Shown here: positions 8,111 to 64,000 of the stretch, in pieces
How positions within the stretch are numbered: the first letter of the stretch is position 1
How the letters are laid out: the number at the start of each line of letters is the position of its first letter
Program-made: the position numbers and the translations under genes
Notes under the pieces: model-generated
Told to the model about the DNA's origin: nothing
Seen by the model: the letters and a program-made list of their open reading frames with translations, nothing else
The model's database searches: none
Assembly: GCA_964496765.1 (NCBI GenBank)
Contig: CAZCAP010000002.1
Span: 33,694-97,693, forward strand
Direction: 5' to 3'
Length of the DNA stretch: 64,000 nucleotides
From: an uncultured archaeon
GTDB taxonomy: Archaea > Iainarchaeota > Iainarchaeia > Iainarchaeales > CSSED10-239

Positions 8111-9385
8111 TTATTTAACTCTCTTTTTTACTTCGATGATTACACCGGCAGCAACTGTCTTACCCATATCTCTTATTGCAAGACGACCAAGTTGTGGGAA
8201 TTCCTTGTAGGTTTCAACACAAAGTGGTTGATTTGGCTTAATCTTAACTATTGCAGCATCCCCTGTTTTTAGGAATTTTGGATTTTCTTCCTTAACTGCA
8301 CCTGTCTTTGGATCAAGTGATCTCACAAGCTCTGTTATTGTACATGATATTTGAGCTGTGTGCATGTGGAATACTGGAGAATAACCAACAGTAATTGCAG
8401 ATGGATGATATAGTACAACCATTTGAGCTGTAAACTCTTCTGCAACTGTAGGAGGACTATTTACGTGACCGATTACTGATCCTCTCTTAATATCCTTTGG
8501 GCCAATTTTTCTAAGATTGAACCCAATGTTGTCTCCAGGAACTGCTTCTGTTAATTGTTCGTGGTGCATTTCAATAGATTTAACTTCAGTTTCAACACCT
8601 TCTGGCATGATAATTATCTTATCATTTGGTCTCATGATTCCACTAGATATTTTTCCAACAGGAACTGTTCCAACACCTTTAATATTGTAAACATCCTGTA
8701 CAGGAAGTCTTAATGGCTTATCTGTTGGTGGAACTGGTGCAACGAACATGTCAAGTGCATCAAGTAAACAAGGTCCATTAAACCAAGCTAACTTATCTGA
8801 TTTCTTGATTATGTTGTCTCCTGGATATGATGCAATTGGAATAATTTTCATATTATCTTCCTTGTATCCAGAACCCTTTAATAGTTTTGTAACATCATCT
8901 TTGATTTCATTGAATCTTTCTTGTTTATATTCAACTTCATCCATCTTATTAACTGCAACAATGATTTGCTTAATACCCATAACTTGAGCAAGGAATGCGT
9001 GTTCCTTTGTTTGAGCCTGGATACCATCCTTTGCAGCAACTACAAGAACAGCAGCATCAGCTTGAGAGGTTCCTGTTACCATGTTCTTAATGTAATCCTG
9101 GTGACCAGGAGCATCAATAACTGTAAAAAAATTCTTTTTGGTTTCGAATTTTTTATAGTTTACGTCAATTGTGATACCTCTTTCTCTCTCTTCTTTTAAT
9201 GTGTCCATCATGTAAGCGAAAGCGAAAGTACCTTTACCTCTTTCTTTAGCAATTGCTTCTAATTTTCTGTAATCCTGTTCAGGTAATGCGCCTGTGTCAT
9301 ACATTAAACGACCAACTGTCGTTGATTTACCGTGATCAATGTGTCCTATAAAAATAACATTGATATGTGGCTTTTCATTTGCCAT
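8111..9385 (-). CDS. tuf: Translation elongation factor 1-alpha (aEF-1A)
   Basis: 424 aa with GHIDHGKST (G1), DAPGH (G3) and NKMD (G4) motifs. Full-length EF-Tu/EF-1A architecture. Confidence 0.95.
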
Positions 9386-30190: not shown

Positions 30191-30210
30191 TTGTTATATT
30201 TGTTGGACAC
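30191..30210 (+). repeat. Copy A of the dispersed 20-mer TTGTTATATTTGTTGGACAC, 46 nt downstream of tRNA-iMet
   Basis: Exact 20-mer. It is shared with copies at 42037..42056 (minus), 33859..33877 (minus, 19 nt), 38522..38541 (1 mismatch), 45975..45993 (minus, in coding sequence) and 63903..63922 (in coding sequence). Confidence 0.6.
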
Positions 30211-30376
30211 AAATTCTAATTATCAAACTAATTATTTAAAGGCCTTAAAAAACGCTAAACCATATAAAAAAGGGGAAAAAGCTCCTAATTTAGCAAAAAA
30301 GGAAAATAAGTGGTTAAAATCAAATATAAACCTATATAAAACCACAAAAGTAACTATATTTCATGGTAATTACTAG
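30191..30376 (+). CDS. Small ORF (61 aa, TTG start) beginning exactly at the 20-mer copy. Questionable as an independent gene.
   Basis: MLYLLDTNSNYQTNYLKALKNAKPYKK... The LLYLLD segment is encoded by the same 20-mer and in the same frame as the last codons of the HD gene at 33848..34756. Confidence 0.2.
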   Translation: MLYLLDTNSNYQTNYLKALKNAKPYKKGEKAPNLAKKENKWLKSNINLYKTTKVTIFHGNY

Positions 30377-30733
30377 TAATTTTAAAGTAATTACCTAAAA
30401 TTAGATTTAAAATAACTAAATAAACACACCACATATACATAAATTTAATAACTACTATAATTAAAATTATAAAAAGTAGCAGATATCATAAAAATAATGA
30501 TTTTTGTTATGTATCAACCACTGTAATTACTATAATTACCATATAAGCGCTTAAGTAATTACCAGCGTTACAGAAAGCTTTATAATAATTACGGTAATTA
30601 CTATAATAGATAACTATGAATTTAAAAGATATATTCAAAGGATTTACTAATATATTCAAATCCAGAAATAAACCAGATAACACAAATATCAACAATAAAA
30701 AAGATGGTAATTACCATAATGAACGTAATTACG
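30365..30733. repeat. Array of about 9 copies of the 8-bp palindrome GTAATTAC (several extended to 10-bp GGTAATTACC or CGTAATTACG). It resembles an iteron or operator array.
   Basis: Copies are at about 30366, 30387, 30523, 30533, 30555, 30586, 30594, 30706 and 30724. They span the 5' UTR and first codons of the wHTH-like gene. The motif is rare elsewhere in the window. Confidence 0.6.
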
Positions 30734-31236
30734 ATGAAATATTAAATTATTCAAAAGATATGATAGTTGATAAACTAAGTAAGGAAGAAATAAATTTTGA
30801 AAAGCTAAAGACAATATCAGAACATACATCAGTATACAATGAAAAAAAAATTAATGGAATGATTAAAAATGAAGAAATAACAGAAAGTATAATAAAAAAC
30901 ACATTATTAGAAAATAATAAAACAAATACAAATATTAGATCAATAACTGTTGAAAAATTACAAAATGAAATAAATACTGTTTGGGACATATTAAAAATTA
31001 AAGAAAACACGCAAGCAGAACATATAATTAAATCAACACCAGCTGATAAATGGGTTACAATGGATGAAATTAGAAACAATATCAAAATACAGTTTAATGT
31101 AGAGTATATTAATGAGAAAAGCTTATACCCTTACCTAAAAACACTAGTGGATATCAACCTAATAAAGGTGAATAATATAGGTAAAAAGAGAACTTGGAAA
31201 AAAAATATAATAGTTATTGAAAATAAAAGAAAGTAA
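30616..31236 (+). CDS. Hypothetical protein with C-terminal winged-helix-like region. It is a candidate DNA-binding or Rep-like protein of the accessory segment.
   Basis: 206 aa, N/K-rich. The C-terminus WVTMDEIRNNIKIQFNVEYINEKSLYPYLKTLVDINLIKV is HTH-like. The GTAATTAC array is immediately upstream and overlaps the 5' end. Confidence 0.4.
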   Translation: MNLKDIFKGFTNIFKSRNKPDNTNINNKKDGNYHNERNYDEILNYSKDMIVDKLSKEEINFEKLKTISEHTSVYNEKKINGMIKNEEITESIIKNTLLENNKTNTNIRSITVEKLQNEINTVWDILKIKENTQAEHIIKSTPADKWVTMDEIRNNIKIQFNVEYINEKSLYPYLKTLVDINLIKVNNIGKKRTWKKNIIVIENKRK

Positions 31237-31237
31237 T

Positions 31238-31852
31238 CTAAATATTATATTTCACTTTTAATTTATTATAGATTTCATAAAATTTTTGCAAATTATTCGA
31301 ATGTTTATAGCTTTCACTAAACCAGTTTGTATCTATTATTTTTTTCATAACATTTATCATAAGATTAATATAGTTTAGATTTAAATTATCTTTAGATAAA
31401 ATTAAATTAACCTCATCAAAAAGCTTAGTAGAGATATTTTCGTTATTGATTATTTTACAATCATTTATGTGAATTTCAATTGCTTTTATTATACTTTCTT
31501 CATCCACATCAATAAAATCTTTTTTATATTCAACACTCCAATTACCTTTGTTTTTCCAATTATGTGTTGGATTTTTACCAGTTTCAAAATATTCTATTAA
31601 TTCATTTTCACACCCAATAGGTAAAATTAATGAATTTTTACCTGATTTTATATAGGGTAGACTAGATATTACCCCATTTCTAAAATAATTATATATTTTG
31701 TTGTTTTTTTTAGTTACATTTTGGGTATATCCATATATAGATCTAAATACCTTTTGATATAAATATGATGAGTGGGCAGTATTTTCTATAAAAGAAAATT
31801 TATATTTAATTAGCACTGATCTAATTTTTGTCATATAAGAGACACCCCACAC
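31238..31852 (-). CDS. Hypothetical protein
   Basis: 204 aa ORF. The true start is possibly MTKIRSV. No recognised motifs. Confidence 0.4.
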   Translation of the reverse strand: MWGVSYMTKIRSVLIKYKFSFIENTAHSSYLYQKVFRSIYGYTQNVTKKNNKIYNYFRNGVISSLPYIKSGKNSLILPIGCENELIEYFETGKNPTHNWKNKGNWSVEYKKDFIDVDEESIIKAIEIHINDCKIINNENISTKLFDEVNLILSKDNLNLNYINLMINVMKKIIDTNWFSESYKHSNNLQKFYEIYNKLKVKYNI

Positions 31853-31940
31853 TTCCTGTATTGTGTATAATTAATAAATAAATAGTTGTTATGTATATAA
31901 TAATATATATATATAAAAGATAAAAAAAGAAGATAAAATC

Positions 31941-32315
31941 TTATCTTCTATGTGTTGATGCTGTTGAATATTTACTTCTATATCCTATATATTTTTTTCT
32001 AATATGTGCATCTTTTGAATTTTCTTGCTCTTCTTCTACTTCAGAAGCTGCAATTTTAGGTTTGTGTGTTGTTGGAACATTACCTGCATTAATTAAGATA
32101 ATATCATCAACAGAGATTACTTTATTATAAGGTATACTATGATCTGTTATTATCTTTTTAGCTTCAACCTTTGAATTAACCTTTAATGGTTGTGTTGTTA
32201 TTGTTTCAATAACACCTTGCTCTAAGTTAACTATGAGGTCATGTACCTTTCCCCTATATGTTGCATCTGTTTGATATAAATCCATACCAAATAGTTTTGA
32301 AATTCTTGTAGTCAT
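31941..32315 (-). CDS. PRC-barrel-like domain protein
   Basis: 124 aa. MTTRISKLFGMDLYQTDATYRGKVHDLIVNLEQGVIETITTQ parallels the PRC-barrel protein at 11844..12107. Confidence 0.45.
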   Translation of the reverse strand: MTTRISKLFGMDLYQTDATYRGKVHDLIVNLEQGVIETITTQPLKVNSKVEAKKIITDHSIPYNKVISVDDIILINAGNVPTTHKPKIAASEVEEEQENSKDAHIRKKYIGYRSKYSTASTHRR

Positions 32316-32519
32316 TTTTATTCCTCCAATTTAATATTATTAATTTGTATATTTGATGTAGTATGAAATATTTTTAAACATATTTATTTTATTTATTGGT
32401 ATTTTTTGTGATTTTTGTTTGATTATCAAAAAAATAGTGTTTTTTGTGTTGTTTTCTGCTTTTTCTGTGGCTTTTTGTATTAAAATGAATTAAAAATATT
32501 AGAGGAATCGTGGGGTCTA

Positions 32520-32981
32520 TCTTTTACTTATCGTAAAATCCCTACTTATTTGTTTTTTAAGAGTATCAATTTTGTTGGTTATATTAGATATAGTGGATTT
32601 TATAATATCCACTCTTCTCCTATATTCTTCATACATTTTATATTCGTGTGTTCTTGTTGTACTTGTTTTAGAATTTGTGACTTGCTTATTTAATTGTTTT
32701 ATATATTTATCTAGTTTTATACTACTATCCTTTAATTTCTTACTTAATTCTAGCTTATATTGCCCTAATCTTATAATTGTTATGTTTGTTTCCTGTACGT
32801 GTTGCTTTATCCATCTTTTTTTAGACTGTATTTCATTTTTTGTGGTTGTTGCATCTATGTTTTTTTCTTCAAATAATTTTTCTGTTTTTGCTTTTATACT
32901 ATTAACCTTTCTATTAAAATTATTTCCCCCTAATTTAAATCTTATCGCTTTTAATGCTATAAATCCACCTTTTCTTAATAA
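32520..32981 (-). CDS. 153-codon stop-free frame (K-rich, coiled-coil-like) lacking a canonical start. It is in the same frame as the upstream recombinase gene and separated from it only by that gene's TAA stop.
   Basis: Reverse-strand translation reads ...DNI* LLRKGGFIALKAIRFKLGGNNFNRKVNSIKAKTEKLFEEKNIDATTTKNEIQSKKRWIKQHVQ...YKMYEEYRRRVDIIKSTISNITNKIDTLKKQISRDFTISKR*. The only ATG is 37 codons from the end. A 150-codon open frame is improbable by chance in AT-rich DNA. Confidence 0.3.
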
Positions 32982-33842
32982 TTATATATTGTCCAACGGG
33001 TTTTTAATTTCTTTTAATTTATTAGTGTTTACTTTTGTGTATATTTGTGTAGTATTAAGATTAGCATGTCCTAATAATTGTTGTATATATCTTATGTTTA
33101 CATCATTTTCTAAAAGCGCGGTTGCAAACGAGTGCCTTAGCTTGTGTGGACTAACCGCTTTATTAATTCCTGCTTTTTTTGCAGATATTTTTAAAAATTT
33201 TTGAACCGTATCTGGAGATAATGTGGATCCCTCTTGATTACAAAATAAGTATTCTGATTTTTGTTTTTTCTCTCTTTCTTCTAAATATTTTTTATAATCA
33301 ACAACCCAATTTTTAGATAGTATTATTATTCTATCTTTATTTCCTTTACCAGAAACCACTTTTCCTGTATGCTCATTAAAATCAAGATCACTTATTTTCA
33401 TATTTATACATTCTGATATTCTAACTCCTGTTGAAAACATAAATTCTATAATTAGTTTATTTCTTTGGCTGCTTGTTGCATTAATTAGATCTTTGATTTC
33501 CTTTGGGGTTAGGGTAATTGGTATTTTATTTGATTTTTTAGGGAGCTTTATATTTAGCTCAAGTGGAGTCCTTAGAAATTCAGAATAAAAATGTTTAAGT
33601 GCAGATAATATTAGGTTAAGGGTAGCAGAACTAACTCCTTTTTTTGATTTAAGTTGTGATAAAAAATTAACAACATCATCTGATTTAACCTCTCTTAGAT
33701 CTTTTTCAATGTATTTTTGAAATATTCCTAGATACATAGAATACGTTTTTATTGTTTGCTCACTAAATCCCTCTATGTTTAATTCATTTTTGAATTTCGT
33801 TATTAATTCTTCGTTTTTAGTATTTACTTCCATAAATTTCAA
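32982..33842 (-). CDS. xerA: Tyrosine site-specific recombinase, XerA/XerC-D family
   Basis: The N-terminal core-binding domain reads FSEQTIKTYSMYLGIFQKY. The catalytic region contains HKLRHSFATALLENDVNIRYIQQLLGHANLNTTQIYTKV, the R..H..R...Y tyrosine recombinase motif. The likely real start is the ATG at 33833, since the ORF track start is TTG at 33842. Confidence 0.8.
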   Translation of the reverse strand: MKFMEVNTKNEELITKFKNELNIEGFSEQTIKTYSMYLGIFQKYIEKDLREVKSDDVVNFLSQLKSKKGVSSATLNLILSALKHFYSEFLRTPLELNIKLPKKSNKIPITLTPKEIKDLINATSSQRNKLIIEFMFSTGVRISECINMKISDLDFNEHTGKVVSGKGNKDRIIILSKNWVVDYKKYLEEREKKQKSEYLFCNQEGSTLSPDTVQKFLKISAKKAGINKAVSPHKLRHSFATALLENDVNIRYIQQLLGHANLNTTQIYTKVNTNKLKEIKNPLDNI

Positions 33843-33847
33843 CTCTT

Positions 33848-34756
33848 TTATTTTTTGTTGTCCAACAAATATAACAACTTATTGCTTGCTATGTATTTTG
33901 GGTTGATTTTTCTGTTTTTTCCAATAAACCCGGTATACTTTTTTGGAATTTTAATATTTTTTGTTTTTAATTTTTCAATGTTGTTAACAATCGTTTTATT
34001 ATTTGACTTTTTTATTCTTTCAAGTATATAGTCATCTGTTTTATTAAAATCATCTTCCTCAATTAATTTTAATTTTATTGCTTTTTTAAGTACTTTAACG
34101 AACATCATATAGTTTATCATGTGTTTTATTCCACCCCAATGATTCTCTGCAAAATACTTATAAACACCATAAAATTCTTTAGCACTCTTTTTATTTTTGA
34201 AAACAATTTCCCCATCAACAACTGTCAGGTTCTTATATAATGTTGTAACCTTTTTTTTATCTTTTTTAAAAAATAAGAGTTCTCTTAGTGTGTAATCAAT
34301 CCTATCAGCACAAAGGTCTGGTAGATTGTTTTCCAATAAAGTAAATCCCTTAAAGTCTGTTATATCTTTTATTTTATATTTATATTTCTTTAATATCTTC
34401 ATAATCTCTTTATTTTTTTTAATGTATTTTTCAAAAACATCATCCCCATGGGATTCATTATTATTGTTAATGTAATAATCATAAACATGTGAAAAAGCTG
34501 TGTGAGATATATCATGTAATAATCCAGCAATTTGTTCCTTTATTGGAGCGCCTAACCTATCCAATAACACCATCACCCCTATACTATGATCATATCTCAT
34601 GAATTCTACTCCATAATGCCATTCCTTAGGTAATCCTTGTTGTCTTATACCCTTAAGTCTCTGAACAGCTGGCGTTTTAATTAAATCAATAAGTACTTTT
34701 TCTTTAATCTTATGTTTTCCGTATACTGCATCTATTATTTCCATATAATCAACCAA
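33848..34756 (-). CDS. HD-domain metal-dependent phosphohydrolase
   Basis: 302 aa. The HD motif LLHDISHTAFSH follows the earlier His (YDHSIGV). The last codons (LLYLLDNKK*) are encoded by the 20-mer repeat. Confidence 0.7.
   Translation of the reverse strand: MVDYMEIIDAVYGKHKIKEKVLIDLIKTPAVQRLKGIRQQGLPKEWHYGVEFMRYDHSIGVMVLLDRLGAPIKEQIAGLLHDISHTAFSHVYDYYINNNNESHGDDVFEKYIKKNKEIMKILKKYKYKIKDITDFKGFTLLENNLPDLCADRIDYTLRELLFFKKDKKKVTTLYKNLTVVDGEIVFKNKKSAKEFYGVYKYFAENHWGGIKHMINYMMFVKVLKKAIKLKLIEEDDFNKTDDYILERIKKSNNKTIVNNIEKLKTKNIKIPKKYTGFIGKNRKINPKYIASNKLLYLLDNKK
33859..33877 (-). repeat. Copy B of the dispersed 20-mer (TTGTTATATTTGTTGGACA on the minus strand). It encodes the last codons of the HD gene and lies about 32 nt upstream of the recombinase ATG.
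   Basis: Direct sequence match. It is in inverted orientation relative to copy A at 30191..30210. Confidence 0.6.
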
Positions 34757-34936
34757 ATTATTAAACCAATAATATTATGCCGAATTAATAATATAAACCT
34801 AACGCTTGTATATTTCTTAGTTTACTGGTCCATTTTCAGGTATTTAATACAAAAATAAAACCAAGGGGAGAAGGTATAAAAAGGCAACCACCTATTAATC
34901 TATAACCTTTTAATTTTTTGATTTTTTTGATTAGTT

Positions 34937-35440
34937 ATGTTTACAATATACACTGGTAACGGAAAAGGTAAAACTACAGCTAGTTTGGGGTTATTAATTA
35001 GAGCTAAGGGGGCTGGATTTAACTGTTATTTAGTTAAATTCCTAAAAAAGCAAGAAAATAGTGAAAACAGTATACTATCTAAACTTGGAATCCCATACAA
35101 AATGTTTGGATCAAACAAATTTATTATTGATAAACCAACAAAAATAGATAAAGAAGAGGCCTCAAAAGCAATTATGTACGTGCAAAAACTAATAGATACA
35201 AAAAAAATTGATTTATTAGTTCTTGATGAAATTAATCTTCTTATTTATTATAAGTTGTTTTCAATTAGGAAAATAAAGCAAATAATTAGTGTATGTGAAG
35301 AAAAAGAAATAGAATTAGTTTTCACTGGGAGATATGCAAGCAAAGACATTATTGAGATTGCAGATCTTGTCTCTGAAATAAAAGAAATAAAACATTATTA
35401 CAATACAGGAATTAAAGCTAGAAAAGGAATTGAATATTAA
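34937..35440 (+). CDS. Cob(I)alamin/corrinoid ATP:adenosyltransferase (CobO/BtuR/CobA family)
   Basis: 167 aa. MFTIYTGNGKGKTTASLGLLIRAKGAGFNCYLVKFLK matches the CobO N-terminal P-loop signature (YTGDGKGKTTAALGL..RA.G.G..V.V.QF.KG). Confidence 0.65.
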   Translation: MFTIYTGNGKGKTTASLGLLIRAKGAGFNCYLVKFLKKQENSENSILSKLGIPYKMFGSNKFIIDKPTKIDKEEASKAIMYVQKLIDTKKIDLLVLDEINLLIYYKLFSIRKIKQIISVCEEKEIELVFTGRYASKDIIEIADLVSEIKEIKHYYNTGIKARKGIEY

Positions 35441-35464
35441 TAAAATACATAAAAGGTAATTATC

Positions 35465-38056
35465 ATGCTCACACAAATAAAAAAAATAACTAAGGTTAAG
35501 AAAAGAACTGGAGAGACAGTAGATTTTAATAAAGATAAAATTAAACTCGCAATCTCGAAAGCAATGCTCGCAACAGACTCACACAACGAGCTTGTTCTTG
35601 AGTCTATTGTTGATAAAATTGTGTTAGTTCTTGAATCTAAGTTTATAAATAAGATACCTTCTGTTGAGGATGTGCAGGATATTATCGAATATGTTTTAAT
35701 TGCAAGCGAGCTTTCAACGGTTGCAAAAGCTTATATTTTATATCGTGAAGAAAGAAGAAAAGCAAGAGATAGTCAAGAAAAAATAATTGATTGTGATTTT
35801 GTTAAAGCTCTGAAAGAAAAGGGTGTGGATTTAAGTAAGCAGGCAGTAAATGTTTTAAATAACTCCACTCAATTCGTTGATCTAGGATTAATTATATTTT
35901 TAGATAGGTATTCCCTTAAAACAAAAAGAGAAGATATTAAAGAAGGGGATTTAATTATTTGTATAACCAAGGATGATTTCAAATATCCAAAGAAAGATAT
36001 TGGTATTGTAAAAAGAATAGTTGATCATAATCTAATTTTACACATGATTACTGGATTGTATGCTGATGAAGCAAATAATTTTGAATTTACCCTAGAATTA
36101 AGTAAATGTGAAAAGCCATCAGAAGCAGTAAATGACACTTATAAAAGAGTTGCAAAAGCGGTCGCTTCTGTTGAAAAAGATGAAACTAACAAAACAAAGT
36201 GGTTTGAGGAATTCTATACCCACCTAAAGTATGGATATATATCTCCTGGTGGGAGAATACTAACAGGTGCAAGTGTTGATGAACTTGGATATACATCTAA
36301 TCTAACTTTATACAACTGCTTTGTAATTCCATCCCCTAAAGATTCCAGAAAATCAATCATCCAGGAATCAGCATATCACATGGTTGAAATATTTTCAAGG
36401 GGTGGTGGTGTTGGGATGTCCCTATCAACATTAAGACCAGCCTATGCTTACGTAATGGGTGTGCATGGAAGATCATCTGGTTCTGTTTCATGGGGTGGTT
36501 TATTTTCATTTATTACTTCTTTAATTGAACAAGGAGGTTCAAGAAGAGGGGCTCTAATGTTAATGCTTGATGATTGGCATCCTGATATTTATAATTTTAT
36601 TGATTCTAAAACAAAAACAGGAATTTTAGAGCATGCAAATATATCTGTTAAGGTTTCTGATTCATTTATGGAGGCTGTTAAAAATAATGAAAATTGGAAT
36701 TTAGAGTTTCCAGATTATGAGAACCCAACCTATAAAGATATATACAATGAAGAATGGGACGGGGATTTAAAAGCCTGGAAAGAGAAAGGCTATCCTGTAA
36801 AGGTTTATGGAACTGTTAAAGCAAAAGACATGTGGTTAAAAATAATAACTTCTGCTTGGAAAAGTGCAGAACCAGGAATTGTTTTCATGGAAAGATACAA
36901 TAAATTAAGTAACAGTTATTATTATAATAAAATTGTTGCAACAAATCCCTGTGGAGAACAGGGACTTCCACCATGGGGGGTGTGTAACCTTGGGCACCTA
37001 TATCTTGCATCTTTTACAGATAAAATTGGTGTTGATGAAATTGGTCCAGTTCATGAACTTAATTGGGATAAACTTAAAAAATCCGCAAGAGTATTAACTA
37101 GATTTTTAGATGATGTAATTGACTTAACACCTTATTTCTTTGAAGAAAATGAAAGATTGCAAAAAGCAGAAAGAAGAATTGGTGGTGGGACTTTAGGACT
37201 TGCTGAATTATTGATTAAACTGAGAGTGAAATATGGAACACCAGAGAGTTTAAAGCTAATTGAAAAAATATATGAAACAATAACAAGCGAGATGTATTTA
37301 ACTTCTGCTTTGTTAGCAGAAGAAAAGGGTTTCTTTCCAAAATTTGATAAAGAAAAATATTTAAATGGAAGATTTGTTAGAGAACTCCCAAAAGAAGTTT
37401 TAGACAAGATTAGAGAAAAAGGTATGAGGAACGTAAGTTTAACAACCCAGGCGCCAACAGGCTCAACAGGGACAATGCTCGGAACATCAACAGGAATTGA
37501 ACCCTACTTTGCATTTCAATTTTATAGGCAATCCAGACTTGGATTCCATAAAGTGAATACTCCTTTAGCTCAGGATTATGAAAAAAATGGAGTTCTTCCT
37601 GATTTCTTTGTATCTGCAATGGATTTAAGTCCAGATGATCACATAAAAGTCCAAGCAGCAATACAGAAATGGACAGATTCATCAATAAGCAAAACCGCAA
37701 ATGTTCCTGCTGATTTCACTATTGAACAAACTGGAGAATTATATATTAAAGCCTATGAACTTGGATGTAAGGGTGTAACCATTTATAGAGACTCATCTAG
37801 AGATGAACAAGTTCTTTCAATGGATGAAAATCAAGGAAAAAAGAATGAAGAATCAACAATAAAAAAAAGAGATGAAAAAAATAAAAAAAATAATCTAAGA
37901 GAAAAAGAACAAGCTCCAAATGAAAATGTAACCTATGGAGTAGATTCTGGAAATACCTGTCCAAATTGTAGGAAAGGTATAATGATTAAACTTGGTGGAT
38001 GCACAGAGTGTTCGCAAGGGTGTGGGTTTAAGGGTGCCTGTGATCTTAAAACATAA
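35465..38056 (+). CDS. nrdJ: Ribonucleoside reductase, adenosylcobalamin-dependent class II (NrdJ-like), with N-terminal ATP-cone and C-terminal Zn ribbon
   Basis: 863 aa. The ATP-cone is KRTGETVDFNKDKIKLAISKAM. The catalytic core contains NPCGEQGLPPWGVCNLGHL (active-site Cys). The C-terminal CPNCRKG...CTECSQGC is present. No intein. Confidence 0.8.
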   Translation: MLTQIKKITKVKKRTGETVDFNKDKIKLAISKAMLATDSHNELVLESIVDKIVLVLESKFINKIPSVEDVQDIIEYVLIASELSTVAKAYILYREERRKARDSQEKIIDCDFVKALKEKGVDLSKQAVNVLNNSTQFVDLGLIIFLDRYSLKTKREDIKEGDLIICITKDDFKYPKKDIGIVKRIVDHNLILHMITGLYADEANNFEFTLELSKCEKPSEAVNDTYKRVAKAVASVEKDETNKTKWFEEFYTHLKYGYISPGGRILTGASVDELGYTSNLTLYNCFVIPSPKDSRKSIIQESAYHMVEIFSRGGGVGMSLSTLRPAYAYVMGVHGRSSGSVSWGGLFSFITSLIEQGGSRRGALMLMLDDWHPDIYNFIDSKTKTGILEHANISVKVSDSFMEAVKNNENWNLEFPDYENPTYKDIYNEEWDGDLKAWKEKGYPVKVYGTVKAKDMWLKIITSAWKSAEPGIVFMERYNKLSNSYYYNKIVATNPCGEQGLPPWGVCNLGHLYLASFTDKIGVDEIGPVHELNWDKLKKSARVLTRFLDDVIDLTPYFFEENERLQKAERRIGGGTLGLAELLIKLRVKYGTPESLKLIEKIYETITSEMYLTSALLAEEKGFFPKFDKEKYLNGRFVRELPKEVLDKIREKGMRNVSLTTQAPTGSTGTMLGTSTGIEPYFAFQFYRQSRLGFHKVNTPLAQDYEKNGVLPDFFVSAMDLSPDDHIKVQAAIQKWTDSSISKTANVPADFTIEQTGELYIKAYELGCKGVTIYRDSSRDEQVLSMDENQGKKNEESTIKKRDEKNKKNNLREKEQAPNENVTYGVDSGNTCPNCRKGIMIKLGGCTECSQGCGFKGACDLKT

Positions 38057-38077
38057 TAAAATGTAATTTGATAAAAT

Positions 38078-38515
38078 ATGATTAAAGTAAAAAGATTAAC
38101 AGAAAGTGCAAGACTTCCAGAAAAAGCACATGAAACAGATGCTGGGTTTGATTTATTTTCAGATGTTGACCTAGTTATTCCTCCAAAATCTAGAGGAACA
38201 GTATCTACGGGAATCACAATGGTACTTCCAGAGATACCCTATCCAATTTTTAATACTTATTTGAGAATTGCTCCTAGAAGTGGATTATCCGCAAAGAAAG
38301 GAATAGATGTTTTTGCAGGAGTAATTGATTTAGAATATAGAGGAGAACTATTAGTTTGCCTTTTCAATTCCAGTGATGAAGTGTTTGAAATAAAGAAGGG
38401 AGATAAAATTGCTCAAATAATCCCAACAATTATTTTAAATGATAAAATTCAAGAAGTAGAAGAGATAGATGACACAGAGAGGGGAGCAAAAGGTTTTGGC
38501 TCTTCTGGTCAATAA
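38078..38515 (+). CDS. dut: dUTP diphosphatase (trimeric dUTPase)
   Basis: 145 aa with canonical dUTPase motifs AGFDLF, RSGLS, GVIDLEYRGEL and RGAKGFGSSG. Confidence 0.85.
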   Translation: MIKVKRLTESARLPEKAHETDAGFDLFSDVDLVIPPKSRGTVSTGITMVLPEIPYPIFNTYLRIAPRSGLSAKKGIDVFAGVIDLEYRGELLVCLFNSSDEVFEIKKGDKIAQIIPTIILNDKIQEVEEIDDTERGAKGFGSSGQ

Positions 38516-38521
38516 CCTTTC

Positions 38522-38541
38522 TTGTTATATTTCTTGGACAC
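38522..38541 (+). repeat. Copy D of the dispersed 20-mer (TTGTTATATTTCTTGGACAC, one mismatch), 7 nt after the dut stop and 115 nt before the KaiC-like gene
   Basis: Direct sequence match to 30191..30210 at 19 of 20 positions. Confidence 0.6.
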
Positions 38542-38656
38542 TTTCTTTCTATTTTTATTTATTTAGCTTAAATAAACCTCTTTTTAAGTTTAATTTCTCC
38601 TATATTATATACAGATACTAAAATCTAATTATTAATATAAATGAGGTGTATGAATT

Positions 38657-39358
38657 ATGGAAAGAGTTCCAACAGGAGTAAAAGGTTTTGATGAATTAAT
38701 CCAGGGAGGTATTCCAAAAGGTGGTACCGTTCTTGTATCAGGAGGAACTGGTTCAGGTAAAACTATTTTTGCAACAACTTTTATTTATGAGGGTGCAAGA
38801 AAATACGGAGAACCAGGTTTAATAGTTACAGTTGAAGATAATCTAAAAAACTTTGTATGGAATATGGAAAACTTTGGATGGGATATTAAATCTCTAGAAG
38901 AAAAAAATCTAATGAAAATATACAGAATGCACATTGATCCAAGAAAACCAGTGGAACCACAAATAGATAAGGAACTAGATATAATCACATCAATGGTTAA
39001 AGATTTAGGGGCAGTTAGGCTCGCTGTTGATTCAACAACCGCTTTTGGTGCTTGGATGTCAGACATTGGAAAACTAAGAAATCTTTTGTTTAGGTTTTCA
39101 GATACTCTAAAAGATTTAAATTGTACAACTGTTCTCACTGCAGAAACAAACGGTCAGGATTTTTCTGCCTATGGTGTTGAAGAATTCGTTGTTGATGGAA
39201 TTTTTATGATGTATTTTATTCCTCCAAACAGATCAATGTTTGTTAGAAAACTAAGAGGAACAAGACACTCATTAACAGTTCATCCTTGTCAGATAACATC
39301 CACAGGAGTAGAAATAAATCCAAAAGATGAAATCATGTGGAGTGCAATCAAGCAATAG
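38657..39358 (+). CDS. KaiC-like RecA-superfamily ATPase (single KaiC domain)
   Basis: 233 aa. GGIPKGGTVLVSGGTGSGKTIFATTFIYEGARKYGEPGLIVTVED shows the KaiC/RadA-like Walker A and the GEPG..T.E pattern. Confidence 0.65.
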   Translation: MERVPTGVKGFDELIQGGIPKGGTVLVSGGTGSGKTIFATTFIYEGARKYGEPGLIVTVEDNLKNFVWNMENFGWDIKSLEEKNLMKIYRMHIDPRKPVEPQIDKELDIITSMVKDLGAVRLAVDSTTAFGAWMSDIGKLRNLLFRFSDTLKDLNCTTVLTAETNGQDFSAYGVEEFVVDGIFMMYFIPPNRSMFVRKLRGTRHSLTVHPCQITSTGVEINPKDEIMWSAIKQ

Positions 39359-39504
39359 TAAATTTTTTTGATTATCTTTTGCTCAAGAGATATATTTATA
39401 AATGTGTAGTTCATAATTTATTTATTAATATAAAAATTAAAGGTGAAAATAATGATAATTATACAGTTACAGTTAATGCTACTGCAAATTGTTTAGATTT
39501 TAAT

Positions 39505-39789
39505 ATGGATAAACCAACAGGGGTTGGGAAAAAAATTACTTTTGCTGGAATTAATGCCACAGGAAATGCAAAAAGTGTTTTAAATAATGTCGAAAACACT
39601 ATAGTTATAACTAGTAGTGATTCTGAACCATTACAAGACCCTGGTACTGATGCGGCTGGGTTCGGGTTTTGCTGTAGTGGTGCAACTGCTGGCGGTGGAT
39701 GGCTAGAATGTTCCGCTGTAAATTGTGTTCCTGATTGTGTTAATATTTGTGCGGGATGGGTAAGTACAAAGACTTATAACCCACAATAA
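39505..39789 (+). CDS. Small cysteine-rich ORF (94 aa from ATG 39505) in a locally GC-rich patch. It has an uncharacterised leader followed by a Cys/Gly-rich C-terminal region.
   Basis: MDKPTGVGKKITFAGINATGNAKSVLNNVENTIVITSSDSEPLQDPGTDAAGFGFCCSGATAGGGWLECSAVNCVPDCVNICAGWVSTKTYNPQ. Seven Cys fall in the last 45 aa. No signal peptide. The ORF track extends it upstream to 39337, overlapping the KaiC-like gene end. Confidence 0.25.
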   Translation: MDKPTGVGKKITFAGINATGNAKSVLNNVENTIVITSSDSEPLQDPGTDAAGFGFCCSGATAGGGWLECSAVNCVPDCVNICAGWVSTKTYNPQ

Positions 39790-39798
39790 ATAATTAGT

Positions 39799-42000
39799 TT
39801 AAGCAATTCCCTTATCTTCTTGGGTTTTGCTTTTCTTATTATTTCCTTTTTTTTCTTTTTCTATTTCCATAATCTTATCAATCGCACTATTGAAATCTTC
39901 TTTTGTTATTCTTATCTCTGATTTATCTTTTTTGTGTTCTTCAATAATAGCTCTTCTTATTGCCATCATTCCTGCTTCTCTTGCAATTGCTTCAATATCA
40001 GCACCACTAGTTCCTTCTGTTTTTTTTGCAAGCTCTTTAGGTGTTATCTTATTATCTATTTTCATGGTCTTTAAATAAACTTCAAATATTTTTTCCCTTG
40101 ATTGAATATTAGGAAGAGGAACATACATTTTAATATCAAATCTTCCTGGTCTTAGGAATGCCTGATCAATTATATCAGCTCTGTTCGTTGCACCAATAAT
40201 AACAATATCTTTGAGATTAGATATTCCATCCATTTCTGTTAATATTTGAGCAACCACGTTATTCTGAACACCACTTGACATGTCATTGCTTGTTCTTGTG
40301 CTTGTTATTGCATCAATCTCATCAAAAAAGATGATTGATGGAGCAAGTTGTCTTGCTTTCTTAAACAATTCTCTTATTTTCTTTTCAGATTCTCCAACCC
40401 ATTTATTAAAGATCTCTGGACCCTTAACAGAAATAAAGTTCGCATTTGATTCTGTTGCAACTGCTTTTGCTAGAAGTGTTTTTCCTGTTCCTGGAGGTCC
40501 ATAAAGAAGAATTCCTTTTGGAGCATCAATTCCAATATCTTTAAATAAATCTTTGTGCTTTAGTGGCCATTCAATCATTTCCTTTAATTGTTGCTTTTGT
40601 TCTTCTAGTCCACCTATGTCATTCCAAGAAACATTAGGTATTTGAACAATCACTTCTCTAATTGCACTTGGTTCAACAACATTTAATGCATCTAAAAAAT
40701 CAGTGTGTGTTATAACAAGCTCATCAAGAAGTTCTCTTGATAGGTGTTTGCTTGACTCTTTACTTATTTTTGGCATTAATCTTTTAATTGCTTTTAGTGC
40801 AGCTTCCTTACAAAGCGCATTAAGGTCAGCACCAGAAAAGCCATTAGTTAATTCAACAATTTCATTTAGGTTTACGTTTACAAGTGGCATACCTCTAATG
40901 TGTACTTGTAATATTTCTGTTCTCCCGATCCTATCAGGTATACTTATTTCAAGTTCCCTATCAAACCTTCCAGGTCTTCTTAGAGCGGGATCAACTGCTT
41001 CTGGTATGTTTGTTGCTCCAATCACAACCACATCCCCACGATTAGACATTCCATCCATTAGTGTAAGAAGCTGAGCAACAATTCTTTTTTCTGTCTCTCC
41101 ATGTATGTTCTCTCTTCTAGGTGCAATCGCATCAATTTCATCAATAAAAATAATTGCTGGTGCCTTTTCTTCTGCTTCCTTAAATATGTTTCTTAAATTT
41201 TCTTCGGATTTCCCATAAACCCCAGAAACAATTTCTGGTCCATTAATTGTTGTGAAGTAGGCATCAGTTTCTCCTGCAACTGCTTTTGCTAGAAGTGTTT
41301 TTCCTGTTCCTGGTGGGCCATAGAGAAGAACACCTTTAGGTGGGGATATTCCGAGTTTTTTAAATATTTCTGGTCTTTTTATTGGTAGTTCAACCATTTC
41401 TCTAATTGCTTCTATTTCTTTTCTAAGACCACCAATATCATCATAGGTTATGCTTATCTTATGTGCTTGCTCTGGTTCTTCTGAAACAACTAGTTTTGTA
41501 TCATCTGTTATTCTTACTGCTCCTTTAGGAATTGTTTTAGTTACAATTAATTGCAGATCTCTGTATCCATCAGCAGTGAGAATAGGTAATCCTGGTATCT
41601 TAATCATATTATTTTCAATAATATTTTGATTAACTATTTTGTCTTTAATATACCCAATAATGTCTGAACTTAATTTTATTTTTTTATCTTTATCAATAAC
41701 TGGTGCTAGGTTAACTGTGTTTGCTCCTGTACAAATCACTTTTTCAATGTAAACATCCTCATCAATTCCTGCACCTATATTGTATCTAATTAGGCCATCA
41801 ATTCTTATTGTATTTAACCCAGTATCTTCCACATTTCCTTTGATTGCATAAACAATTGCTGATTTTATTCCATCTATCTTTAGAGTATCCCCTGCAGATA
41901 GCTTAAGCTTATCAAAAACAATTGGATCAATTTTAGCTATTCCTTTTCCTACATCTTTAATATCGTTTTCCTTAACAGTAAGAATTATTTTTTCTGGCAT
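39799..42000 (-). CDS. cdc48: AAA+ ATPase Cdc48/VCP (two AAA domains)
   Basis: 733 aa. A double Walker A is present ([15 protein letters not shown] twice). The second-region homology DEIDA and the N-terminal double-psi barrel domain are present. Confidence 0.9.
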
Positions 42001-42036
42001 AATTGGTTTCTCTTTTTTTAAATTTCTATATTTTTA

Positions 42037-42056
42037 GTGTCCAACAAATATAACAA
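42037..42056 (-). repeat. Copy C of the dispersed 20-mer (exact TTGTTATATTTGTTGGACAC on the minus strand), about 40 nt upstream of the cdc48 ATG and about 125 nt downstream of the topA stop
   Basis: Direct sequence match to 30191..30210 in reverse orientation. Confidence 0.6.
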
Positions 42057-42186
42057 AAAACACTTTATTATATTTTTGTTATCCTAATAGGATAAGGAGG
42101 CACAGGATTAAAAGGTTTTTGGAAAAAGCTTATAAAATTTTCATAAAATATAACTAGTTTATTACTAAAAGTGAGTATTTGTATAG

Positions 42187-45802: not shown

Positions 45803-47023
45803 TTACCCAAGAAGATAGTATTCTTTAGACCCATTTATCTTGATTTTTGCTATGTTTCCTAGCTTAATTTTTCCATTTTTATTTGATTTTATAACAACAG
45901 GCAGATATTCCTCTGTTTTTCCAAGAAATTCGTTTTTGTTTGTGGCTTGTTCGTTGACTAGAACCTGTTTGGTTTGTCCAACAAATATAACAGAATTGTT
46001 CCTTGCAATCTCTTTTGCAACCTTCGCAAGAATTCTAGATCTCTCCTTCTTAATTTGTCCGTGGAGATCCTTTAGGTTATTTGCTTCTATTCCTTTTCTT
46101 TTTCCAAATCTTGAAATATTAATTAATGGGGGTTTAATTTTTTTAATAAATTTTATTGTGTTTTCAAACTCTTTTTCTGTTTCTTCTGGAAAACCAACAA
46201 TCACATCTGTTGCAATTGTTATTGTTGGGTGAACTTTTCTAAAATAATTAATAATGGTTTCAATTTCCTGCGTTTTATAATATCTATTCATTTTTTTTAG
46301 TGTGTTATTATCTCCTGCTTGAATAGGGATGTGTAGGAACTTATAAATTTTTTTGTTTTTATATACTTTAGCAAGTTCTTTATAAAATTTAATTAGATGT
46401 TGTGGGTTTGCCATTCCTAATCTTATTCTAAATTCACCAGGTATTTTAATTATTTCTTTAAGTAGATTTACTATGTTTGTCTTAATATCTAATCCATAGC
46501 AACCAGTGTCCTGGGCAGTAAGTAATATTTCTTTTGATCCGTTTTTTAGTGCAAATTTAGTTTCCTCTAGTATTTCCTTAATTAGTTTACTTTTCAGTCT
46601 TCCTCTTGCAAATTTGACTGCGCAATAAGTGCATGCTCCAAGACAGCCGTTTGCAATAATTATTGCCTGAGTTATTTTTTTCTGAGATTTAATTTTACTT
46701 TTAGAAAAAATTAATTTTTTTAATTTTTTTACATCTTTTAACCCAAAATAGTTTGCTTTTGGGCACGTTCTTCTAAGTCCAGATGAATCAATATCAACAA
46801 GACACCCAAACAATATAATTTTTTTATCTTTCGTTCCATTTTTTTTAAGTTCCTGCAGATATTTAATTATTTTAAACTCTGTTTGTTCTTTAACCCCGCA
46901 GGTGTTTATAAGAATAAAATCCGCAGAATTTATATTTTCTGTTAATATTGTATGATTGGTTAATTCTTCACTAGTTCTTTGATTTAGAGTGCATCCAAAT
47001 GTTTTAACAAATATAGTTTTCAT
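45803..47023 (-). CDS. Radical-SAM methylthiotransferase (MiaB/MtaB/RimO family), probable tRNA t6A37 methylthiotransferase
   Basis: 406 aa. The MTTase N-domain is KTFGCTLNQ. The radical-SAM cluster is CLGACTYCAVKFARG. A C-terminal TRAM-like domain is present. Confidence 0.8.
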   Translation of the reverse strand: MKTIFVKTFGCTLNQRTSEELTNHTILTENINSADFILINTCGVKEQTEFKIIKYLQELKKNGTKDKKIILFGCLVDIDSSGLRRTCPKANYFGLKDVKKLKKLIFSKSKIKSQKKITQAIIIANGCLGACTYCAVKFARGRLKSKLIKEILEETKFALKNGSKEILLTAQDTGCYGLDIKTNIVNLLKEIIKIPGEFRIRLGMANPQHLIKFYKELAKVYKNKKIYKFLHIPIQAGDNNTLKKMNRYYKTQEIETIINYFRKVHPTITIATDVIVGFPEETEKEFENTIKFIKKIKPPLINISRFGKRKGIEANNLKDLHGQIKKERSRILAKVAKEIARNNSVIFVGQTKQVLVNEQATNKNEFLGKTEEYLPVVIKSNKNGKIKLGNIAKIKINGSKEYYLLG

Positions 47024-63038: not shown

Positions 63039-64000
63039 ATGTCTAATTATAAGCAAGAAAAATCAAGTTCTTTCTTTATTAAAAAGATAAATAATAAAGA
63101 AATTAAGGTACTTGCAAGCAAAACCCTATTTTCTAAGATCCCTTTTTCTGCATTTGAACAACTTGAATCTATTTCTTTGATTAAAGAAGTTGAAAGTCCA
63201 ATTATTGCTCATCCAGATATTCAACCAGGATTTTCTGTTCCCATTGGAACTGTTTTTTTAAGTAATGCAAAAACAGGAATTATTTCCCCATCAGCAATTG
63301 GGTTTGATATTAATTGTGGAATTAGATTAATTAAAACAAATTTATTTTTAAAAGATATTTCTAAAGAGCAACTTTTATCTCTTAAAAATGAACTAACTAA
63401 ACTTCCTCTTGGTTTGTCTAAAAAAGGAATGAAGATAACTAGAAAGGATTTAGACAATATATTAAATAATGGAATTAATTGGTGTGTTTCTAAAAAAATG
63501 TGTTCAAAGGAGCACTCTAAAAGAATAGATATGGGGGGATGCTATGCAGGAGCAAGTTCTTCTTTTGTTTCCAAGGAAGCAAAGGAACTTGGGCTTCTTG
63601 AGCTTGGAACGCTAGGGGAAGGTAATCATTTTATTGATGTTCTTATTGTTTCTGATATTTGTAATAAGTCTCTTGCGACTAAATATAAACTTAAGAAAAA
63701 TCAAATAATAATTTTAATTCATAGTGGCTCTCGTGGTCTTGGGCACAGAGTAGCAACAGACTATAATAAGCTATGTGAAAATAAACATCCTTTTACATAT
63801 ACTAAATTTAATTCTAAGATTGGACAAGATTATTTTAAAGCAATGAAGGCAGCAGGAAATTTTGCCTTTGTTAATAGAGAGATTCTTTCAAAACAAATAC
63901 AATATATATTTTCTGTTATATTTGTTGGACACTCAAAAGTGAAATTAGATCTCATTTATGATCTTTGCCATAACACTGCAACTCTTGAAAAAATAAAAGG
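63039..64000 (+). CDS. rtcB: RNA-splicing ligase RtcB (3'-phosphate/5'-hydroxyl RNA ligase), N-terminal about 320 aa. The gene continues past the window end.
   Basis: ATG at 63039. The motifs HPDIQPGFSVPIGTV, GFDINCGIRL, GEGNHFIDV, IHSGSRGLGH and DLCHNTA are present. The frame is open to the window edge. It is not in the ORF track because no stop lies inside the window. Confidence 0.85.
   Translation, partial: MSNYKQEKSSSFFIKKINNKEIKVLASKTLFSKIPFSAFEQLESISLIKEVESPIIAHPDIQPGFSVPIGTVFLSNAKTGIISPSAIGFDINCGIRLIKTNLFLKDISKEQLLSLKNELTKLPLGLSKKGMKITRKDLDNILNNGINWCVSKKMCSKEHSKRIDMGGCYAGASSSFVSKEAKELGLLELGTLGEGNHFIDVLIVSDICNKSLATKYKLKKNQIIILIHSGSRGLGHRVATDYNKLCENKHPFTYTKFNSKIGQDYFKAMKAAGNFAFVNREILSKQIQYIFSVIFVGHSKVKLDLIYDLCHNTATLEKIK

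Follow-up and report, generated by a model that had tools for sequence, protein, structure and literature searches.

A conserved 18-nucleotide word that looks like a lineage-specific regulatory signal in a small clade of DPANN archaea

The question that is raised by this stretch of archaeal DNA, 64,000 nucleotides (nt) in length and referred to as "the window", concerns a short word that recurs in it: a preliminary description had listed a 20-mer at four intergenic or gene-end positions, and had proposed as its possible roles a shared promoter or operator, a combined terminator-promoter element, a recombination site, and an uptake or other genome-wide signal. Here, we have compared the copies of the word in the window and in related genomes, with respect to their boundaries, their strand and their positions relative to genes. 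The word looks like a lineage-specific regulatory signal, new among the elements in Rfam and in the literature searched; judging from its distribution, we tentatively favour a cis-element that would be read on the transcript, or co-transcriptionally, by a putative sequence-specific reader, and that would define a regulon.

When both strands of the window are searched with the 20-mer at up to three mismatches, six matches are found against 0.01 expected, and none of 100 shuffles reaches six, in agreement with the earlier statement that recurrence by chance is negligible. The four copies of the preliminary description (A to D, Table 1) are all present where it had placed them, and two more (E and F) had been missed; the claim of intergenic or gene-end positions describes A, B, C and D, and is only partly true, because E and F are located deep inside the MiaB-like and RtcB genes. 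The place given for copy A (after tRNA-iMet) and the distances given for copy D (after the dut stop codon) and, approximately, copy C (about 40 nt before the cdc48 start codon) agree with those measured; copy B, said to overlap the stop codon of the HD-domain gene and to lie about 32 nt before the start codon of the Xer-like recombinase gene, ends 8 nt short of the former, lies 25 nt from the latter and spans 33858-33877, with one mismatch. The copies are clustered, with five of them within 16 kb followed by none in 30 kb, and A/B and D/C are inverted pairs, spaced 3.5-3.7 kb.

The conserved unit is shorter than the 20-mer: when the window copies are aligned with 98 non-identical instances that come from relatives, conservation does not exceed background at positions 1 and 20 or anywhere in the flanks, and the core that recurs is the 18-mer TGTTATATTTGTTGGACA, i.e. 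positions 2-19. Only two positions of the 20-mer vary, namely position 4 (T or C) and position 12 (G, C or A, never T). Over 81.5 kb, the source contig (ENA ERZ27248937 k141_943951) contains five exact copies, one copy with one mismatch and none with two, which corresponds to one copy per 13.6 kb; matches with three or more mismatches form a chance-level tail, and no sub-word of at least 11 nt occurs outside the full copies. The word is all-or-none, with a bimodal mismatch distribution and no degenerate tail, and it is found on roughly one in ten transcription units of a small DPANN clade, and at about 75 sites per Mb. No Rfam family covers it, and no description of this element has been found in our literature searches.

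An exact-match scan of the 185,579 species representatives of GTDB has returned multiple copies in one species only, the archaeal metagenome-assembled genome ELA007 (12 exact matches on 11 contigs), the other 16 matches being single and located in unrelated genomes; a metagenome scan has contributed 92 further loci, many of them low in GC content and at 75-85% nucleotide identity to the window, none being identical. The word is restricted to one clade, which belongs to the DPANN archaea and is nearest to 'Candidatus Iainarchaeum', at 51-58% identity of the RtcB and nuclease homologues. A search in related genomes had been suggested earlier as a check: in several species it finds the word at positions orthologous to those of the window (downstream of tRNA-iMet and of dut, in the end of the HD gene, upstream of cdc48, and within MiaB and RtcB), where the word is intact, the flanks have diverged and indels directly adjoin it. 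As these loci came from exact-match retrieval, an unbiased test has been adopted, in which only contigs that span two to five window sites are counted and one site per contig is discounted: at all of the 10 orthologous sites that are left, the core has no more than one mismatch, with flanks that are 72-84% identical, against a neutral retention probability of roughly 0.1 or less per site. This multi-site test replaces a comparison of synonymous sites in the coding copies (12/240 differences in the core against 277/823 outside), which was biased by the exact-match retrieval. No turnover of sites between species is seen across the approximately 60 kb compared. Selection appears to act on the word itself, which, being unchanged at the same sites across species, looks like a lineage-specific gene-expression signal.

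The copies inside coding sequences are not in-frame insertions, a possibility that we have rejected since their counterparts in the solved structures of RtcB and RimO are ordinary residues: the RtcB peptide SVIFVGH corresponds in the alignment to FQEVFKQD of the Pyrococcus horikoshii enzyme, and the MiaB peptide VIFVGQ coincides with the FVG that opens the TRAM domain. The RtcB peptide is limited to a subclade with at least 64% RtcB identity; the next lineage, with genomes of 0.7-1 Mb, has a one-mismatch word in RtcB, and a lineage with 55% RtcB identity keeps exactly the 3' 14 nt. In the latter lineage (L131), RtcB holds two variant words CAATATTT(G/C)TTGGACA, one per strand, which may be a lineage-specific version of the signal. 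The VIF(V/I)GH context is natural in β-strand-Gly motifs, where coding copies could thus evolve; a three-mismatch near-copy, TGTTATTTTTATAGGACA, is located in the strand of the EF-1alpha P-loop of the window.

For the analysis of strand and position, 91 instances have been clustered by flank similarity into 33 sites, counted as 34 because site 5 has two contexts. Intergenic contexts account for 27 of the 34, against about 13% of non-coding DNA (p=2e-18), and where the orientation is informative, i.e. between tandem neighbours or inside genes, the sense strand prevails over the antisense strand by 23 to 3 (p=9e-5), the intragenic sites alone giving 7 to 0. Neither coding constraint nor composition explains this bias: two of the three antisense frames are open, Asn/Lys/Tyr-rich and fit the proteome (the antisense readings SNKYN and CPTNIT would suit this AT-rich proteome), and the word is T-rich where the sense strands are A-rich.

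The strand rule bears directly on the proposal of a DNA uptake or genome-wide self-recognition word, which would be selected for its presence and not for a local function. Such a word would be exact and over-represented in spacers and permissive coding frames of one clade, as it is here, with a single GTDB species among the 185,579 carrying multiple copies; however, DNA uptake sequences occur about once per kb on both strands, and the present density is 10-100 times below that of known uptake sequences. Together with the low density, the strong bias towards the transcribed orientation, the stability of individual sites and the clustering of the copies make this reading highly improbable.

Recombination at the word by the neighbouring Xer-like tyrosine recombinase, through inversion, excision or cassette exchange, had also been proposed, and it is true that copy B lies upstream of the recombinase gene at the same distance in every genome, that inverted pairs exist and that several indels and changes of neighbour adjoin copies. 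The word, however, has no dyad symmetry, only the outer TGT...ACA matching (4 of 9 half-site positions), copies lie in essential genes, and the strand rule would go unexplained; furthermore, at least five genomes (L013, L075, L097/L085, L112/L098 and others) are colinear with the window in gene order and orientation across the six sites, the inverted pairs included, so that recombination is unsupported and, in our estimate, extremely improbable. No inversion between A and B or between D and C is seen in the compared genomes. Two candidate gene cassettes have been rejected as well: the difference between L011/L054 and L031/L073 is a tandem duplication of about 250 nt that includes coding sequence, and the site-5 variants have no copy on both sides of the inserted gene. 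The duplication creates an open reading frame (ORF) of 61 amino acids (aa), the C-terminus of which is paralogous to that of the upstream 446-aa methyltransferase, and it yields a second copy of the word 20 nt after the stop codon of that ORF. A mobile or palindromic repeat of the MITE (miniature inverted-repeat transposable element) or REP (repetitive extragenic palindromic) type has been rejected, considering that nothing is conserved outside the 18 nt, that a general hairpin is missing, that 10 of 10 sites are retained and that the coding copies are not insertions.

Apart from its strand, the position of the word within the transcription unit is free, and the positional check on the source contig and its relatives, which had been suggested at the outset, returns intergenic enrichment and a sense bias, with no fixed distance to start or stop codons. 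Copies are found 0-9 nt after a stop codon, at the upstream edge of spacers of 116-450 nt (dut, the gene before the RNase P RNA, dCMP deaminase); the copy at the end of dut keeps a distance of 6-9 nt in five genomes, including L075, where the downstream gene is a different one. At sites 12 and 5b, the copy fills a gap of about 40 nt between convergent stop codons. Other copies are located 3-7 nt before the start codon (the MBL-fold gene, PyrF, site 17), the MBL-fold gene having the word in four genomes with four different upstream neighbours, or 19-160 nt upstream of cdc48, the recombinase, FKBP and other genes. Still other copies lie more than 300 nt inside a gene (RtcB, MiaB, AlkD-like, serine hydrolase), the one in the serine hydrolase encoding the GHSLG nucleophile elbow. 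Within one gene, the place of the word can differ between lineages: the PD-(D/E)XK nuclease gene has it in the 5' leader in ELA007, L070 and L137-139, and in the lineage with genomes of 0.7-1 Mb a C4/C12 variant lies 4 nt after the stop codon, facing a convergent gene.

A subset of sites offers a partner for the word. At 6 of the 33 sites, an upstream complement within 50 nt gives a pairing energy of -12 kcal/mol or lower, a level that 1-3% of the controls reach. The leader of cdc48 contains CAACAAATAT, exactly complementary to ATATTTGTTG, the centre of the word; this complement is kept in three orthologues and is near-exact in the window, the loop between the two arms varies from 9 to 20 nt, and the duplex has an energy of -12 kcal/mol against -5.7 for shuffled cores. 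Two other hairpin sites belong to one family of non-coding modules, none of which is covered by an Rfam family, and which consist of, in order, a TATA-like box, a 5' box (GTATATCCYTTTYGGRAGGGGG...GGCCA; also GTATATCCYTTTYGGRAGGG), an A-rich body, the anti-motif (C/G)(T/C)GTCCAA(G/T)AAA(T/A)ATAGC(G/A), a run of five to seven T, a spacer of 23-28 nt and the canonical word. Anti-motif modules occur in the relatives L018/L080, L070 and L040/L083, each beside a copy of the word. In L040/L083, all three differences between the two arms are G-U wobbles on the strand of the sense motif and would be A-C mismatches on the other strand, and in a duplicated paralogue in L083 both arms have decayed together. 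In every module, position 4 of the word faces a G of the anti-motif, and position 12 faces a G or a U; these are exactly the two positions where the copies vary.

The module family, recognised by its TATA-like box and 5' box GTATATCCYTTTYGGRAGGGGG, also precedes the PD-(D/E)XK nuclease gene in all lineages and occurs at further loci (Table 1), with a body that is a minimal hairpin, an insertion of anti-motif and motif, or an unrelated T-rich body. In the nuclease leader of the window's organism (L136, same assembly), the 5' box is followed by a short hairpin, TGTCCAAG...CTTGGACA, without the full word, and the stem of this leader hairpin shows a compensatory change from T-A to G-C between lineages. 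A two-gene module (a 94-aa protein and a 115-aa ParE-like toxin) flanks the anti-motif/motif module in the closely related genomes L040 and L083, on one side in the former and on the other side in the latter, and in L083 a decayed second copy of the anti-motif/motif module is found at the ancestral place; the 94-100-aa protein downstream of copies has been considered as an autoregulated reader and rejected, given its ParE-like toxin partner and its absence from the window.

Several other partners have been tried and rejected. No free wobble-compatible antisense has been found in the window or the fetched loci beyond the partners mentioned, one extra match, in a methyltransferase gene, being due to chance. 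A general local hairpin is not supported, as the pairing probability is 0.61 in the motif and 0.48-0.52 in the flanks, with diffuse partners, and strong upstream complements are confined to a subset of sites. Tethering to the ribosome through the 16S rRNA is rejected, the duplex with the clade's 16S being weaker than that of 99% of shuffled words, and so is complementarity to the RNase P RNA, considered along with it. As for a viral origin, the single exact IMG/VR match is on a contig that is also in the metagenome set (L059, identical with L120; Ga0256837_1000225 / IMGVR_UViG_3300026484_000595; 50.9 kb, the same low GC of 0.28, one exact copy), and that origin has been rejected; the contig, classed as viral, could be a virus or provirus of the clade, a misclassified cellular contig or a chance match. 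Three IMG/VR matches to the anti-motif are chance matches in coding sequence of higher GC content.

The strand rule, the occurrence of the word at different positions of the same gene, the paired anti-motifs and the agreement between wobble-tolerant and variable positions favour a reading at the RNA level, and the all-or-none distribution with sharp 18-nt edges is typical of recognition by base pairing. A transcript-level cis-element is the most economical account of all contexts, although our confidence in it stays short of even. The word would exert its effect through the transcript, or through the polymerase as it transcribes, rather than as DNA with a set place in a promoter; it can be located in a 5' leader, in an intercistronic spacer, just past a stop codon or in permissive codons (VIFVG[H/Q], LLYLLD). 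A sequence-specific trans-acting reader, for which an RNA-binding protein and an antisense RNA resembling the anti-motifs of relatives are candidates, would co-ordinate the processing, stability, translation or premature termination of the gene set, and at some sites a conserved upstream complement could mask the word in a hairpin. A more specific form, which we regard as rather unlikely, is an RNA-guided post-transcriptional regulon, an archaeal analogue of plant microRNA (miRNA) or small interfering RNA (siRNA) targeting with about 75 transcripts per Mb: hairpin or small RNA (sRNA) modules with an 18-19-nt anti-motif and the 5' handle GTATATCCYTTTYGGRAGGGGG would recognise, with wobble at the two variable positions only, near-perfect words in leaders, trailers and coding sequence, thereby controlling nucleotide supply, DNA repair and RNA repair.

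A number of observations weigh against the transcript-level account. Three sites are antisense to their neighbours, and the antisense copy in L131, which overlies the conserved peptide WCLSKKYC, is a further counter-example to the sense rule. No trans-acting anti-motif RNA or module has been found in about 87 kb of the window's organism; the modules of relatives always adjoin a motif and may, therefore, be purely cis hairpins, and position 12 also changes from G to C, which a single guide could not pair with. The functional theme of the gene set is suggestive, as a tally of the genes that carry or adjoin copies alone. Finally, some features recall a promoter: the word includes a TATA-like octamer; a weak A/G-rich, C-depleted stretch precedes it at -8 to -1 (0.1-0.27 bit, confounded with stop codons and AT-rich spacers); an A/T-rich, G-poor patch follows about 14 nt downstream, where a start site would fall; and at tRNA-Thr the octamer lies at -33 to -24, in the place of a TATA box.

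These last features belong to the alternative that the word is an operator or an extended core-promoter module, in which the TATA-like TTATATTT is followed by GTTGGACA, resembling a downstream TFB-recognition element. Its reader on DNA would then be the basal machinery, or else a TBP/TFB pair that is specialised for it, and the word would make a promoter class akin to that of an alternative sigma factor. The co-orientation of the word with downstream genes agrees with such a role, as do the sense gene or RNA starts within 160 nt at about half of the sites, the fact that the word stays with the MBL and FKBP genes where other genes have come to lie upstream of them, and back-to-back pairs, 28-29 nt apart, that resemble divergent promoters; the geometry at tRNA-Thr equals that of the RNase P RNA's own TTTAAATA at -34 to -27. 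Promoters within operons and coding sequences are known in archaea (PMC2710873).

The distances between word and gene, on the other hand, do not suit a promoter in many cases. At the MBL-fold gene in four genomes, at PyrF and at site 17, the start codon follows 3-7 nt after the core; as the archaeal TATA element lies about 24-30 nt upstream of the transcription start, a TATA box within the motif would start transcription about 7-11 nt inside the ORF; the spacing suits a TATA element at tRNA-Thr only. Copies also lie between convergent stop codons (sites 12 and 5b), or in coding sequence more than 300 nt from the next gene (four copies), and in one lineage the word comes after the stop codon of the nuclease gene. 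Separate, conserved canonical boxes exist at the RNase P RNA, the KaiC-like gene and cdc48, which shows that the word is not a general core promoter: for the RNase P RNA (identified by Rfam with full model coverage, E ~1e-14), a conserved TTTAAATA is located 26 nt 5' of the RNA, and the word another 27 nt or so 5' of this box; the KaiC-like gene is preceded by a box and a ribosome-binding site that belong to it, so copy D is not its core promoter; and for cdc48 the probable promoter is a conserved box, AAATTTTATAAAC, some 80 nt 5' of the word, after which comes a conserved leader, so that copy C would lie within the 5' leader. There is no partner element at constant spacing from the word, and the octamer differs from the local TATA consensus TTTAWATA. 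An operator in its turn would usually show a degenerate tail and a characteristic position, whereas here the tail is missing and the distance to the start codon ranges from 3 to more than 400 nt, with 3'-end and coding copies besides. The general idea of a shared regulatory signal for a regulon is supported by the conserved sites, the co-orientation with genes and a recurring gene set, but a TATA core promoter is not supported as the general mechanism, and we consider a DNA-level promoter or operator possible but doubtful.

Two of these loci deserve a separate remark. The RNase P RNA of the clade looks reduced or divergent: it scores 49-58 bits, below the Rfam gathering thresholds of 84 and 100, with the models fully covered, it is assigned to the bacterial type A model in L094, and it is situated after the 16S rRNA, tRNA-Ala and a 230-aa gene without a Pfam family. 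Between topA and cdc48, a block CTTTTTCCAAAAACCTTTTAATCC... is almost invariant in four genomes, far above the level of other spacers, and could be either a small RNA or a structured 5' leader.

The remaining alternative is a polar terminator or insulator, where a protein bound to the word, or the word in the nascent RNA recruiting a termination or cleavage factor, would halt read-through where transcription units end in a very compact genome, and could shield the next unit. At about 60% of the sites, the word lies either within the last 100 nt of a sense gene or RNA or no more than 60 nt past its end, many copies lie 0-9 nt after the stop codon despite a long spacer (sites 7, 10 and 15) or a convergent next gene, T is enriched just 3' of the word, and in the module family the word comes after the anti-motif and the T-run; moreover, L056 has lost gene X and the copy after gene X has decayed to three mismatches. 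Conserved copies deep in the essential RtcB and MiaB genes argue against this reading, as do copies in divergent spacers or 76-160 nt upstream that move with the downstream gene (sites 5a, 6 and 14); since about 10% of the units carry the word, it cannot be a general terminator. An intrinsic archaeal terminator has an oligo-T tract of at least five at the transcript end; the longest T run in the word is three, a T at position 12, which would give T6, is never seen, downstream T-runs are inconsistent and there is no consistent hairpin. The word is, judging from its composition, not a canonical terminator, and the punctuation element proposed earlier, which fits about 60% of the sites and neither the deep coding copies nor the divergent spacers, is unlikely.

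Under the transcript-level account, the genes that contain or adjoin copies would form the regulon. They belong to nucleotide metabolism (RNR-dut cluster, dCMP deaminase, PyrF, PyrI, PRPP synthetase), DNA repair and topology (Ogg, AlkD-like, PD-(D/E)XK nuclease, HNH, KaiC/RadB-like ATPase, TopA, Xer-like recombinase, HD hydrolase), RNA and tRNA processing (RtcB, MiaB, CCA-adding enzyme, RNase P RNA, tRNA-Thr, a beta-CASP protein, UPF0020 methyltransferase), and stress response and proteostasis (superoxide reductase, a DsbA-like protein, FKBP, Cdc48, SPFH). DPANN archaea are uncultured, their genomes, about 1 Mb in size, have very short spacers and encode few recognisable regulators, and their gene regulation is, to our knowledge, essentially unexplored; the word offers a concrete handle on the co-ordination of nucleotide metabolism, DNA and RNA repair and proteostasis in such cells. 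If it is read as RNA, it would be among the clearest sequence-defined post-transcriptional regulons in archaea, and if it is read as DNA, an unusual class of promoter or insulator; either way, it is a practical marker for binning and annotating this clade.

Near copy A, the window has a second recurrent element: 7 of its 10 GTAATTAC palindromes (1.3 expected) are located in or just after the 400-nt spacer before a 206-aa gene at 30616, an arrangement that is conserved in ELA007. They are probably operators of a different regulator, possibly of the winged-helix-like 206-aa protein itself.

Table 1. Copies of the word and associated features in the window and in related contigs (contig handle before the colon; all other positions, except those of L131, are in the window).
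Feature	Position	Strand	Remarks
Copy A	20-mer 30191, core 30192..30209	+	Exact core; 46 nt 3' of tRNA-iMet, 406 nt 5' of next gene; orthologues in L020, L039, L075, L097, L099, each 45-89 nt 3' of the same tRNA
Copy B	20-mer 33858-33877, core 33859..33876	-	Core exact, 20-mer with one mismatch; last codons of HD-domain gene (LLYLLD); kept in L027, L028, L097, L098, one mismatch in L075
Copy D	20-mer 38522-38541, core 38523..38540	+	C at core position 11; 7 nt 3' of dUTPase stop codon (end of CobA-RNR-dut cluster), 116 nt 5' of KaiC-like start codon (ATG)
Copy C	20-mer 42037-42056, core 42038..42055	-	Exact core; 131 nt 3' of topA stop codon, 37 nt 5' of cdc48 start codon, within conserved leader
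Copy E	20-mer 45974-45993, core 45975..45992	-	Exact core in MiaB/RimO-like coding sequence; read as VIFVGQ, start of TRAM domain; 172 nt before stop codon; orthologues in L050, L085, L112 (L085, L112 with one mismatch)
Copy F	20-mer 63913-63932, core 63914..63931	+	Exact core in RtcB coding sequence; read as VIFVGH; 445 nt before RtcB stop codon, ~465 nt before PRPP synthetase gene; gene extends past window end; identical in six more genomes at ~80% flank identity
Box and ribosome-binding site of KaiC-like gene	38601..38648	+	TATA-like box (TATATTATATAC; also TATATTATATA) and GAGGTG; conserved
Box and leader block upstream of copy C	42105..42140	-	TATA-like box AAATTTTATAAGC; conserved
Cis anti-motif	42068..42080	-	AACAAAAATATAA; can pair with centre of copy C
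Block between topA and cdc48	42105-42128	-	CTTTTTCCAAAAACCTTTTAATCC...
Palindrome array	30366-30732	+	GTAATTAC
Near-copy in EF-1alpha	9341-9360	-	TGTTATTTTTATAGGACA
Module loci	L018:5198-5541, L070:7560-7900, L080, L040:400-600, L083:960-1010 and 1790-1990, L051:9560-9700, L136:2348-2500, L140:2350-2500		
Two-gene module	L040:58-1327, L083:488-1990		
Variant words of L131	10446-10463		-	Within RtcB
Variant words of L131	10873-10890	+	Within RtcB
RNase P RNA	L087:3211-3480, L046:3324-3585, L094:12069-12345		
Tandem duplication	L011:7480-7880, L054:1070-1470 (versus L031:2290-2560)		

Compared with known systems, the word shares features with several and agrees fully with none of them. The core sites of tyrosine recombinases of the dif/XerA type resemble it in having one copy beside an Xer-like gene and a length of about one arm plus spacer, but the word lacks inverted arms, is present in dozens of copies and shows no rearrangement between them. 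The uptake sequences of Neisseria (DNA uptake sequence, DUS) and Pasteurellaceae (uptake signal sequence, USS) are likewise clade-specific exact words in spacers and permissive codons, and differ in their much higher density, whereas the word is biased to the transcribed strand and keeps stable orthologous positions. Polar terminators, such as the mTERF site and the 18-bp Sal box of TTF-I/Reb1, are asymmetric, about 18 bp long, orientation-dependent and located at unit ends, sometimes before the next promoter; these are eukaryotic or organellar, while copies of the word occur in essential ORFs and in leaders. The archaeal TFB-recognition element (BRE) and TATA box share with it the A/T-rich octamer, perhaps the weakly purine-rich upstream flank, the co-orientation with genes and the correct geometry at tRNA-Thr, yet they follow a loose consensus in contrast to an invariant 18-nt word, which has convergent, near-start and deep coding copies and co-exists with separate TTTAWATA boxes.

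On the RNA side, the chloroplast sites of the PPR10 type are asymmetric words of about 17-18 nt in intercistronic spacers near stop and start codons, and by this likeness the word could define and protect an upstream 3' end and a downstream 5' end; PPR sites are each unique, unlike one word at about 75 sites per Mb, some of them in coding sequence, and we know of no PPR proteins in archaea. We also know of nothing in DPANN archaea of the kind of a miRNA- or sRNA-target regulon, where a guide and an effector (Argonaute, Hfq-like) operate, the present system being known from its target words and cis modules, and the position 12 change is, unlike in those systems, unpairable by a single guide. 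The targets of plant miRNAs and bacterial sRNAs nevertheless share with the word a length of about 18-20 nt, sharp edges, an all-or-none occurrence on the sense strand, a distribution over leaders, trailers and coding sequences, synonymous sites that are frozen across species, and hairpin loci that hold the complement beside a copy, with wobble differences on one strand.

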